Assembly (NCBI GenBank): GCA_964599625.1
Contig: CAZRGC010000003.1
Coordinates: 3,816 to 67,815 of the forward strand
Source: an uncultured Gammaproteobacteria bacterium
Lineage (GTDB): Bacteria > Patescibacteriota > Microgenomatia > UBA8517
Direction: 5' to 3'
Length of the DNA stretch: 64,000 bases
Numbering within the stretch: the stretch's first letter is position 1; every line of letters starts with the position of its first letter. Positions 18,379-21,207 of this stretch are shown here, piece after piece. A program made the position numbers and the translations under genes. The notes below the pieces were generated by a model. It worked only from the letters and a program-made list of their open reading frames with translations, searched no databases and was not told the origin of the DNA.

Positions 18379-21207
18379 ATGGCTAAACTATTAACCAAGA
18401 ATAATATTGAGGAGCTTTTTTATGCCTTTGAACATTTTTTTCCAGAAGGCTATGTTTATTCCAGCGACAAACCTTTTGTTTCTGGAAATTTTAAGTGGAA
18501 CAATCGGGAATCCTTCATTGAATCCATTAAAAATTTCACCGGGGTGGAAATAGATCCTAAAGATCCTGAATCAATAAAAAATGCACAATTTGCTTTAAAA
18601 AAGCTGGAAGATGACGCACCACTTGATAGCAATTTACCCGATCAAGCAAGGCTTAAGCAAATGGAAGCAGAAAGACTTAAAAGGGAAGCTGCCATAAAAG
18701 CCAGTGCCGAGGATGCAAAAATTCAAGTTCAAGCAGCAATCAAAAGACAAGAGGAGCTACACAAAACAATTCAAGGTAAAAAGATTTATCGAAGAGTAAA
18801 CACCCCACCCCCAGAAACATTAACTGAAGATAAAGCAAAAACAGTTGAAACCTTCAAAACAGCAGCAGTCGCCAACCCGGAGCAATTAACCCATCAAATA
18901 GCATCTGAGATAGAAGAAAGAATAAAAACTTCAATACCGGACGAGGTTGAACCAGAAGTGGTTAAAGCACTTTCTACAAGAGCAGCAGTCAGAGTTGTGG
19001 AAAATCTTAGAGGTAAATCACTTGCAGTTGAGGCACTTACAGTCAACAAAATCGCCGGTGACGAGAGCGTTGTTGGAACCGTAAATCCGGAAACTACAAA
19101 GCTGTTTATTAATTCCGCCGTGAATGTCGGTAATACAAAAATAATCGAGTACCAAATCGACAGAAAAATTGTCGCAGCTGCTTTCAACGAAGATTTTGCT
19201 TCAAATTTCTTGGGTCCAAAAGATTTAGATAAAGTAAATATTGAATTTTCTTTGACCCCCCAAGCAGGGTTTGAAGAATACGATCTTGGAGAAGTTACCA
19301 CATCACAGATAGATTTTTTGAACAAGCAAGACTTTGTTTTTGACACTATCGGAAGTGTTGGTTCAGGCGAAATAAAGTCGGTATTTTTAAAACAGGTTGG
19401 CTCTTGGATTGAAAGTAGTATTCCAGAGTCAGGAGCTGTCGCGGAAGCATACAACACCCCTCTGGTACAAGCAGCTTTAAGCTATTACGGGTTGGGTGAA
19501 CCAATTGCCTGGGAAGGGACAACATTCTTTGGAAGAATGGCTGTGGAATTTGGGTATGGCCCGACTTTTGGATGGGCAGGGCAAATTACTGGTATTGATT
19601 TTGGCGTAACCCAGGCATCTGCAAGTATTTCATCAGAGGTGGCCGCACAAGCCGCAGCAGGAACACTTTCGACAGAAATGACAGCCGCCGCAGTCAATAC
19701 TGCCGCTGTGGGCGGTGGAGTTGCCGCAACCGAAGGAGCAGCTGTTGTTGGAGGTGTGACTGCTGCCGCAGCCGAAGGAGCAGGAGCGGTAGTTGCAACC
19801 GGTGCAGTAGCTGCAGGTGGAGTTGCAGCCACAGAAACGGGCGTTGCAGCCGCGTCTGTCGCCGCAGCGCCCGTAACAGGTGGTGTCAGCTTGGCAATTG
19901 GCGCTGCTGTTGGCCTTATAACTGCAATTTTTGGACCTAAATTCCTGGATTGGGTTTCTAAAAACGCTAAAAAAGTTGACGGAACAAGTGTTGCGCTTGC
20001 AGGCGCATTTTTTGGAATGGTAATCGGTGGCGGAATATCAGGTGCGTTGATAGGCGCAAGCATAGGTCTTGGCTCATTTGGGCTCCTGACAGGAGGTTTT
20101 TCAGGTGTCGGCAGCGCCTTTTCAGGGGCCGCAACTTCAATTTTTGGAGCTTTCAGCGCTGCTTGGGCAATCCTTCTGGCCGAGACAGGTTTACCAATAA
20201 TTAGCTTTCTAATAGGTTTTCCGCTTTTGACTGCTTTGATTCTTGTGATAATAAACAACAGTGCTTATCTGGTACCACCTGGCGGCGACTCTTCGTTGAA
20301 TAGTACTAATGCCTATATATCGGTAGAGAAAAAAGCCGAACCAGCAGGCCAGGTCCCATCGCCTACAACAGTAACATACACGGTTACAATAACAGCCAAA
20401 AAGGACACTCTTTCGGGTATAAGTTTTACAGCCACTTGTAGTGCAATCAAAAAGAGCGGGGGAACAATTGATTGTAAAAACTTGGAACAACTTCCCGCTC
20501 CCCCAGCATCCATATCTCCGGGGGCTCCGTACTCATTTACGTTTACTTCAACTTATGGTTCAAATTTTAATGATTCCTTGGTTAGTGACAGCATCACAGT
20601 CACCGCCTCATCAAACGATGGCGGCGAGGTTTCCGAAACAGGCTCTGCGTCTGTGTGTTTTGGAGACTGCCCGCTTGGATGTTATAAAACAGTAGACAAC
20701 AACGAACCTTGGCCCGCCAACTTCAAATCAAACCTCGACGCAGCAGCGGCGACGCTTAGTGGAAGTCATCCGGGTTTTTCCCAAAAAGCGTGTGCCGGTG
20801 GCGAAATTAATATGTGTTACACAACAAAAAGTCCAAATCCTATTGGGTCGGGTGGTTTGTGTAACAGAACCATTTATGCCATTCATGCACACAGCGGTTC
20901 CTGCGATATTAATTACAACCAATGTGGTCTCAGAAGCCAAAGTGATGCCTTATATATCCTTACACACGAAGTGTCTCACCATATACAAAATATCAACGGA
21001 GGACTCCAAAGGCAATTTGAGCAACAAGTTCCCTCTTCCGAATGGCCAATATGCACATACAGCAACACGGGAAATCCTTACGAAAGCATGGCAGAAGGAA
21101 ATGCATTGTTTGTTGGTAAGCCGTCCTGGAGCGGCTGTGTAACAAACTATCAGTCCCAATACCCCAAGCATTATCAATTCGCCAAAAACGTAATGTTTGC
21201 CCAATAA
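18379..21207 (+). CDS. Large membrane protein with an N-terminal cytoplasmic domain, a Gly/Ala-rich multi-TM block and a C-terminal Cys-rich HExxH metallopeptidase-like domain
   Basis: No signal peptide. The 19.6-20.25 kb region encodes G/A/V-rich helices. HEVSH lies at 20965-20979, followed by ...ESMAEGN (a possible third ligand). 14 Cys in the last 200 aa. Confidence 0.5.
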   Translation: MAKLLTKNNIEELFYAFEHFFPEGYVYSSDKPFVSGNFKWNNRESFIESIKNFTGVEIDPKDPESIKNAQFALKKLEDDAPLDSNLPDQARLKQMEAERLKREAAIKASAEDAKIQVQAAIKRQEELHKTIQGKKIYRRVNTPPPETLTEDKAKTVETFKTAAVANPEQLTHQIASEIEERIKTSIPDEVEPEVVKALSTRAAVRVVENLRGKSLAVEALTVNKIAGDESVVGTVNPETTKLFINSAVNVGNTKIIEYQIDRKIVAAAFNEDFASNFLGPKDLDKVNIEFSLTPQAGFEEYDLGEVTTSQIDFLNKQDFVFDTIGSVGSGEIKSVFLKQVGSWIESSIPESGAVAEAYNTPLVQAALSYYGLGEPIAWEGTTFFGRMAVEFGYGPTFGWAGQITGIDFGVTQASASISSEVAAQAAAGTLSTEMTAAAVNTAAVGGGVAATEGAAVVGGVTAAAAEGAGAVVATGAVAAGGVAATETGVAAASVAAAPVTGGVSLAIGAAVGLITAIFGPKFLDWVSKNAKKVDGTSVALAGAFFGMVIGGGISGALIGASIGLGSFGLLTGGFSGVGSAFSGAATSIFGAFSAAWAILLAETGLPIISFLIGFPLLTALILVIINNSAYLVPPGGDSSLNSTNAYISVEKKAEPAGQVPSPTTVTYTVTITAKKDTLSGISFTATCSAIKKSGGTIDCKNLEQLPAPPASISPGAPYSFTFTSTYGSNFNDSLVSDSITVTASSNDGGEVSETGSASVCFGDCPLGCYKTVDNNEPWPANFKSNLDAAAATLSGSHPGFSQKACAGGEINMCYTTKSPNPIGSGGLCNRTIYAIHAHSGSCDINYNQCGLRSQSDALYILTHEVSHHIQNINGGLQRQFEQQVPSSEWPICTYSNTGNPYESMAEGNALFVGKPSWSGCVTNYQSQYPKHYQFAKNVMFAQ

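Follow-up and report, generated by a model that had tools for sequence, protein, structure and literature searches.

The window analysed here is a 64,000-nucleotide stretch of contig CAZRGC010000003.1 (assembly GCA_964599625.1), to which all coordinates refer. It holds a chromosomal, origin-proximal type IV secretion system (T4SS) locus of the Candidate Phyla Radiation (CPR) type, in which we analysed a gene encoding a protein of 942 amino acids (aa). The CPR affiliation is based on a Woesebacteria homologue and on the locus type. The gene is an ATG-to-stop open reading frame (ORF) that starts 2 nt after the stop codon of virB4, which confirms its placement directly downstream of VirB4 in an earlier annotation made from the letters of the DNA (the first-pass annotation). 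Its product comprises a large N-terminal domain, a membrane block, a stalk and a predicted peptidase domain, hereafter the cassette; a small partner gene follows, with dnaN and dnaA (identified by Pfam) directly downstream of it on the opposite strand. The gene, its parts and the preceding ATPase are located as follows:

16337..18376, + strand: VirB4-type ATPase, matching Pfam TraG P-loop/AAA_10 and NCBIfam conju_CD1110 (372.6 bits, above the cutoff of 325)
18379..21207, + strand: the whole gene, 942 aa, with an N-terminal domain (probably cytoplasmic), a Gly/Ala-rich linker and transmembrane block, an immunoglobulin (Ig)-like stalk and a predicted zinc-peptidase cassette (from the ORF, its translation and the AlphaFold model)
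18379..19668, + strand: N-terminal domain, aa 1-430, mostly helical, without signal peptide, probably cytoplasmic; predicted local distance difference test (pLDDT) >90 at aa ~10-330
19687..19878, + strand: Ala/Gly/Val/Thr-rich linker, aa 437-500, of low complexity by composition; pLDDT <50, without secondary structure
19873..20262, + strand: hydrophobic, glycine-zipper-like membrane block, aa 499-628, with segments at 499-517, 540-558, 583-601 and 607-625 (from hydropathy, loop charge and GxxxG motifs)
20248..20280, + strand: exit motif IINNSAYLVPP (IINSGAYVVPP in the family consensus), where the last transmembrane helix ends on the outer side
20311..20661, + strand: Ig-like β-sandwich stalk, aa 645-761, all-β, pLDDT >90
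20662..21204, + strand: putative catalytic cassette, aa 762-942, a predicted PPEP-1/lethal-factor-like gluzincin domain that opens at the junction G762-x-x-P765-x-x-C768
20965..20979, + strand: HEVSH, aa 863-867, on the active-site helix; by homology it supplies two His as zinc ligands and the catalytic Glu; 99-100% conserved
21058..21096, + strand: Y894 through E902-S-M-A-E906, the candidate oxyanion Tyr and the glutamate helix with the predicted third zinc ligand

The first-pass annotation had pointed to HEVSH at 20965-20979 with a downstream ESMAEGN, and had suggested a zincin fold in which the Glu of the latter is the third ligand of a gluzincin site. Both motifs are present (aa 863-867 and 902-908), and the chance expectation for HExxH in a protein of the same composition is 0.007. 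An AlphaFold2 model of the cassette, built from a 51-sequence alignment, was confident (pLDDT 92.9, predicted TM-score (pTM) 0.91) and comprises a small β-sheet, a long helix (aa 854-872) bearing HEVSH and a later helix (aa 900-912) bearing E902 and E906. When this model was compared with the PDB by Foldseek, PPEP-1/Zmp1 (6r5a) came first (TM-score 0.60, probability 1.0), with aureolysin and thermolysin far behind. In an independent profile search of PDB sequences, PPEP-1 again ranked highest (E=0.024), followed by anthrax lethal factor (E=0.12). Matches in a viral-structure library were largely zincins, including IrrE-like, a metalloprotease, lethal factor and M34. The layout of the model and the agreement of fold and profile searches on PPEP-1 as the best solved match thus support the zincin fold. 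In the profile alignment, HExxH falls on H142/E143/H146 of PPEP-1, E902 on the zinc ligand E185 and E906 on E189, and the C-terminal YPKHYQF lies opposite CPQTYSF. Y894 stands 8 residues before E902 and two positions off PPEP-1 Y178 in the hidden Markov model (HMM) alignment (roles of the PPEP zinc ligand and Tyr from PMC12828418). By this homology H863, H867 and E902 are predicted to bind zinc, E902 being the third ligand that had been suggested; E864 would be the general base and Y894 would stabilise the oxyanion. Two disulfides, C768-C805 and C892-C920, are likely.

From six sequences we built a profile of the last ~180 aa; searching exhaustively with this HMM revealed 405 clusters at 50% identity, 270 of them at E≤1e-10. 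Among the 150 matches listed, the domain lies at the C-terminus or a few residues from it, and most of the proteins measure 600-1100 aa. Full-length homologues share 78, 71 and 48% identity with the 942-aa protein. Word-index searches returned four proteins with the full-length query and none with the N-terminal alignment, a poor yield that is probably due to the low-complexity Gly/Ala block swamping the index. One 166-aa 'domain-only' protein (P0008) is probably not a separate architecture; its 90%-cluster mate KKR72056.1 (228 aa) is annotated as partial.

Conservation of HExxH in orthologues, a check named by the first-pass annotation, proved nearly complete: the motif is present in 153 of the 154 homologues (representatives at ≤50% identity). 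Across 149 aligned domains, C768, C805, E864 and H867 are 100% conserved, H863, E902 and E906 99%, C920 98%, P929 97%, and C892 and Y894 96%. C768, C805, C892 and C920 are the only Cys conserved family-wide (96-100%); the 14 Cys previously counted in this part of the protein came to 12, at aa 687-920. No Pfam or NCBIfam model reached its cutoff for the domain. Subthreshold Pfam matches of family members were mostly to Zn-peptidase families, and the Pfam lethal-factor family gave no match at E≤1 among 51 family members. With no significant sequence match to a family model, membership of the domain in M34 or the PPEP group is not demonstrable; judged from the model, the domain is a new gluzincin family with a predicted M34-like fold.

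The resemblance to PPEP-1/Zmp1 (CD2830) of Clostridioides difficile and to lethal factor (MEROPS M34) extends to several features. All are compact zincins of ~180-190 aa that act outside the cytoplasm, a location that is predicted for the cassette. In each, the active-site helix bears HExxH, a helix with E-x-x-A-E supplies the zinc-binding Glu, and the C-terminal motif reads P-x-x-(Y/F)-x-F; a Tyr precedes that Glu by 7-8 residues, Y894 being the candidate counterpart in the cassette. PPEP-1, moreover, has a functionally linked gene next door (PMC12828418). Unlike these proteins, the cassette has four conserved Cys, which would form the two disulfides, and it is fused to a multi-transmembrane, T4SS-linked protein, whereas PPEP-1 and lethal factor are secreted. 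Nor is there evidence in the cassette for the Pro-Pro specificity of PPEP-1. According to PMC8610288, known PPEP homologues are confined to two Firmicutes orders, whereas the cassette family comes from CPR.

A profile of the C-terminal ~315 aa, covering stalk and cassette, also retrieved two proteins with the same anchor and stalk, of which P0009 ends in Peptidase_M23 and P0010 in another domain. At the P0009 locus, the order is PrgI-like protein, 231-aa protein, VirB4, P0009, 333-aa protein, dnaN, dnaA. Scanning metagenomes with an alignment of anchor and stalk only as query, we found 80 loci, which together with three earlier loci gave 83 proteins; a search of a genome collection with a 4-sequence alignment gave one locus. 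A profile of the HExxH-domain alignment assigned 37 of the 83 loci to the HExxH type. Another 32 carry an M23 cassette, as judged by similarity to that of P0009, which matches PF01551, and the remaining 14 carry a P0010-like cassette, which is a divergent M23 (7 of 10 members match PF01551, best E 2e-5). No other cassette type was found among the 83 loci. H169 and H171 are invariant in the divergent M23 cassettes, and the 12 M23-type sequences inspected keep HxH in HLHYEF-like motifs. The M23 variants, such as P0009, thus share the slot, the transmembrane anchor, the IINSGAYVVPP motif and the stalk, and sometimes the same N-terminal domain, but end in an unrelated fold, a β-rich HxxxD/HxH domain as opposed to a HExxH zincin. 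The junction, G-x-P-P-x-x-C, is also common to the three types. The first-pass annotation had proposed that a zincin here replaces a cell-wall hydrolase; that positional orthologues in the same slot carry Peptidase_M23 strongly supports this. Sixty loci extend 200 bp or more upstream of the gene, and 54 of them have VirB4 as its immediate neighbour there; among the other six, it lies at 224-673 bp in three and was not detected in three. The order PrgI-TrsD-VirB4-gene-partner-dnaN-dnaA is kept in most related loci with enough flank.

Each cassette type is followed by its own small gene. In the window, this gene is:

21268..21855, + strand: cognate partner gene, 195 aa from its ATG (the ORF opens at TTG 21214), encoding an N-terminal transmembrane anchor, a Pro/Thr linker and an ectodomain of ~140 aa

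The transmembrane segment of the partner spans aa 11-29, and the 3' end of the gene overlaps that of dnaN by 4 nt. Conservation lies in the globular domain; the Pro/Thr linker varies across members, which share no Pro-Pro motif in it. HExxH-type partner ectodomains show weak similarity to BamE in 6 of 12 members and to DUF4309 in 3 of 12. The downstream genes differ in size, with ~180-197 aa after HExxH cassettes (typically ~190), ~325-350 aa after M23 (~330) and ~145-154 aa after divergent M23 (~150). The divergent-M23 partner is an Ig-like Big_5 domain, and the three partner families have only the N-terminal transmembrane anchor in common. Using HMMs of the ectodomains only, we found the expected partner at 34 of 34 HExxH loci, 29 of 30 M23 loci and 14 of 14 divergent-M23 loci, with no cross pairs. 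Where the flank was long enough, the partner type of the window stood directly downstream in all 34 HExxH loci and in none of the M23 or divergent-M23 loci.

In neighbour-joining trees of DnaN and of VirB4, the three cassette types are thoroughly interspersed. Comparison of an M23 locus (L002) with a divergent-M23 locus (L049) gave 85-91% DNA identity in both flanks; the similarity ends exactly at the end of the stalk, is absent over the cassette and the next gene, and returns at the dnaN 3' end. A similar replacement separates a HExxH locus (L014) from another divergent-M23 locus (L045), with the breakpoint inside the stalk. The cassette and the downstream gene are therefore exchanged as one block between close relatives. 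A partner that co-varies so strictly is most simply read as a cognate binder of the catalytic domain, putatively an inhibitor or regulator.

Towards the N-terminus, the protein is more variable. The N-terminal-domain HMM matched 56 of 154 family representatives, which makes the domain optional in the family; proteins of each of the three cassette types can have it, and short forms such as P0009 (515 aa) lack it. Pfam gave no match to it at cutoff (E 0.05-0.4), PDB sequences matched only at E>2, and among the top 50 listed Foldseek PDB matches of the full-length model none was attributable to it. Those listed matches were mostly to Ig-like or other β-rich domains, and the stalk matched Ig-like sandwiches such as Spo0M, RhoGDI and the pilin BcpA. 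Weak DUF7507 matches to the stalk were found in homologues. The length of the N-terminal region varies widely, full-length forms ranging from 515 to 1,643 aa, while anchor, stalk and cassette are constant; the 1,643-aa version (L069, 4020-8951) has an M23 cassette and a far longer N-terminal part.

The first hydrophobic segment is found at aa ~499 and none precedes it, in agreement with the earlier statement that there is no signal peptide and that the N-terminal ~400 aa look cytoplasmic, the latter being probable. The region described as extremely rich in Gly, Ala and Val is so (23% Ala, 17% Gly and 10% Val at aa 400-640). GxxxG motifs are modestly enriched at aa 536-630, with 7 observed versus 3.1 expected from shuffles (P=0.017). 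The Gly/Ala-rich transmembrane block that had been proposed stands in part: 3-4 segments have transmembrane-like hydropathy, but aa 437-500 and ~550-588 are of low complexity and unstructured in the AlphaFold model. A Lys-rich loop at aa 520-537 would suit the cytoplasm, the short P0009 has the same membrane-block layout preceded by a K/R-rich N-terminus, and the conserved Cys of the C-terminal domain form likely pairs. These three features argue for an N-in/C-out topology that would place stalk and peptidase outside the membrane. At the predicted exit from the membrane, the motif IINSGAY(V/L)VPP occurs in 126 of the 154 homologues and also in the M23 variants, with I625, N626, A629 and P633 at least 90% conserved. 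No other stretch in the family, M23 variants included, is as well conserved, and the motif may be a processing or recognition site.

We favour, with confidence a little above even, the interpretation that the 942-aa protein is a T4SS-linked extracytoplasmic peptidase in the VirB1/PrgK-type wall-hydrolase slot, accompanied by a cognate regulator or inhibitor. The glycine-rich transmembrane block would tether the peptidase and the Ig-like stalk would hold the cassette outside the membrane. There, it would cut peptide bonds in the wall zone, be it in peptidoglycan stem peptides, cross-links or wall-bound proteins, and this cleavage would clear a path for the T4SS and for its VirB2-type pilus. The 195-aa, BamE-like, membrane-anchored partner would most likely inhibit or regulate the peptidase and so protect the producer's own wall. 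The main argument for a wall substrate is the interchangeability with M23 domains, which are classical peptidoglycan endopeptidases. PrgK of pCF10 contains a LytM/M23 domain. In CPR, a VirB1 homologue is seldom seen close to virB4, and other hydrolases may take its place (PMC12102498); downstream of virB4, S. epibionticum has peptidase and lysozyme homologues that are essential (PMC12102498; PMC10633639).

Several points weigh against this interpretation. The substrate of the cassette is putative, the matches to PPEP-1 and lethal factor are weak (12-14% identity, Foldseek E 0.02, HMM E 0.02-0.12) and no Pfam or NCBIfam model reaches its cutoff. HExxH zincins are, to our knowledge, not established peptidoglycan hydrolases. 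The topology is drawn from hydropathy, loop charge and the Cys pattern only, and the inhibitory role of the partner only from co-variation and weak BamE-like matches. PPEP-1, the nearest solved relative, cuts surface adhesins and not peptidoglycan (PMC12828418). Furthermore, housekeeping wall remodelling offers no obvious reason for the repeated replacement of cassette and partner, which is more typical of conflict systems. Such a conflict system, a polymorphic effector-immunity module, is an alternative that we hold possible and clearly less probable. The peptidase would be offensive, directed at the envelope of a host or competitor, and the anchored downstream protein would be its immunity protein. 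The module might, again tentatively, resemble CdiA-CT/CdiI or Rhs-CT/RhsI in its mode of action while forming part of a T4SS operon; the IINSGAY/VVPP junction may be where the cassette is set free, or the cassette may be displayed at the site of contact. This would account for a conserved N-terminal part and junction being followed by three cassettes that are unrelated or divergent, for the strict one-to-one pairing with the downstream gene, for a block swapped between genomes with 85-91% identical flanks and a breakpoint at the junction, and for cassette types interspersed on the trees. The partners, membrane-anchored and by predicted topology extracytoplasmic, sit where immunity against a wall peptidase is expected, and CPR T4SS are essential for epibiotic growth and lack a relaxase (PMC12102498, PMC10633639). 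Since repeated block replacement between close relatives is a hallmark of polymorphic toxin-immunity loci, we keep this explanation as a minority view. Its main weakness is that a protein with several transmembrane segments and a single Ig stalk has no obvious reach to another cell, and we found no evidence of cleavage or release. In addition, we saw three cassette types only, all peptidases, against the dozens of classical polymorphic toxins. The gene is fixed in a core operon as a single copy, and the flanks showed no arrays of orphan cassettes or immunity genes. Tight physical linkage alone could also hold cassette and partner together.

Two further explanations concern the peptidase domain itself. 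An unlikely one is that it is a PPEP-like surface-protein protease, which would cleave adhesins, VirB2-type pilins or the product of the adjacent gene. Equally improbable as part of this idea, it would process pilus subunits or switch attachment, with the downstream gene as its substrate rather than its inhibitor. PPEP-1 is indeed the closest match both among solved structures and by sequence profile, the partner has a Pro/Thr-rich linker between anchor and globular domain, and a pilin array lies at 3221-5461 of the same locus. However, M23 domains occupy this position in near-identical loci and come with partner families of their own, and a dedicated pilin or adhesin protease is unlikely because an unrelated M23 fold substitutes for it while the other machinery is unchanged. 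The partner linker, lacking conservation and a shared Pro-Pro motif, is also not what is conserved, the globular domain being conserved instead, and at 12-14% identity neither the S-loop Trp/Tyr nor the diverting loop of PPEP is identifiable. The suggestion of the first-pass annotation that the protein is a processing protease for the pilins is hence not supported, given the free exchange of the cassette for M23 between near-identical loci, and we rejected it on this substitution in the same slot, each type having its own partner. Less credible still is a structural T4SS membrane subunit, VirB6- or VirB8-like, with the HExxH domain as a non-catalytic binding module. The protein does adjoin VirB4 and has a multi-transmembrane block and a large N-terminal domain, and degenerate LytM domains act as binding modules elsewhere, for example in SpoIIQ. 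Against this, every catalytic position is 96-100% conserved at ≤50% identity, the M23 variants examined keep HxH, and a protein with ~10 transmembrane segments at 8877-10676 is a better VirB6 candidate. With its 3-4 hydrophobic segments only, the 942-aa protein falls short of the at least five transmembrane helices of a VirB6; these segments, the separate ~10-segment candidate and the conserved catalytic residues led us to reject the VirB6 assignment.

The favoured wall-hydrolase assignment agrees with what is known of VirB1-type enzymes (PrgK of pCF10, TraG of pIP501, CwlT of ICEBs1 and TcpG) in that the gene lies in a T4SS operon near VirB4 and the product is membrane-anchored with its catalytic domain outside the membrane, as predicted here. 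The likeness to PrgK includes the M23 domain of the sister variants. Gram-positive VirB1-type enzymes use SLT/lysozyme plus CHAP or NlpC/P60 domains (PMC12102498), and none of these was matched by Pfam or NCBIfam in the 942-aa protein. It also differs from VirB1-type hydrolases in its 430-aa, probably cytoplasmic N-terminal domain, its glycine-rich multi-transmembrane block, its Ig stalk and its zincin, as well as in having a polymorphic cassette with a cognate partner gene. By gene arrangement alone, the system resembles CdiA-CT/CdiI, Rhs-CT/RhsI and LXG toxins, where the enzymatic C-terminal cassette varies behind a conserved N-terminal body and junction, a small gene specific to the cassette comes next, and the pair is exchanged by recombination. 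It departs from them in having three cassette types only, all peptidases, and in its carrier, which is integral to the membrane and belongs to a core T4SS operon neighbouring dnaN/dnaA.

A wall hydrolase as a T4SS component is known in kind; the zincin family, the architecture and the exchangeable cassette-plus-partner arrangement are new. Our literature search found no paper linking PPEP-like or HExxH peptidases to CPR T4SS, and a 2025 survey of Patescibacteria T4SS does not describe the 942-aa protein. The wall-hydrolase component was not identified in most Patescibacteria classes (PMC12102498), and the one species of Patescibacteria tested requires its T4SS for epibiotic growth (PMC10633639). 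Our analysis would assign the VirB1/PrgK-type slot to a large, uncurated protein family, define a zincin family whose model is confident and whose catalytic residues are clear, and extend the lethal-factor/PPEP fold beyond Firmicutes. It also frames two options for the CPR T4SS, the remodelling of the own wall and an attack on the host wall. On the second, more doubtful option, an essential, origin-proximal CPR T4SS operon would hold a polymorphic effector-immunity module, with a tethered carrier, interchangeable wall-degrading cassettes and dedicated anchored immunity proteins, the pairs being shuffled between strains. If true, polymorphic toxins would have a new delivery context, and there would be a direct molecular handle on the way in which epibiotic CPR cells breach or remodel the envelopes of their hosts.

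Other components of the T4SS locus lie upstream of virB4:

1500-3185, - strand: 561-aa protein with a coiled coil and a SpoIID domain (PF08486), adjoining the pilin array
3221-5461, + strand: T4SS pilin array of five small ORFs, four of which match T4SS_pilin PF18895 (VirB2-like), three over the Pfam cutoff and one under it
8877-10676, + strand: 599-aa protein with ~10 hydrophobic transmembrane segments by hydropathy and no Pfam or NCBIfam match
14485-15618, + strand: PrgI/VirB3-like protein (PrgI E=5e-5, 24.1 bits, under the Pfam cutoff of 27)
15625-16332, + strand: TrsD-like protein of 235 aa (NCBIfam NF041427, E=5e-7, under cutoff)

The pilin array lies ~13 kb upstream of the 942-aa gene, and the window pilins gave no match in the 8-10 kb flanks of related loci, beyond which an array at ~13 kb would fall. 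The SpoIID-domain protein is a second potential wall-remodelling enzyme of the locus. The TrsD-like protein is also similar to the N-terminus of VirB4, in agreement with published descriptions of CPR T4SS loci. The 599-aa protein, homologues of which were found upstream of virB4 in several related loci, is likely the VirB6 analogue, a component that the literature describes as 'missing' in Microgenomatia.

Two minor observations concern related loci. A CPR-type locus with a 71%-identical orthologue (L001, CAZRJH010000002.1) is labelled 'uncultured Gammaproteobacteria', and the metagenome-assembled genome is probably mislabelled. The M23-variant T4SS locus L002 contains two genes (1106-1408 and 5881-6282) with 23S_rRNA_IVP/bAvd-like matches (PF05635, PF22296); bAvd-like proteins accompany diversity-generating retroelements.

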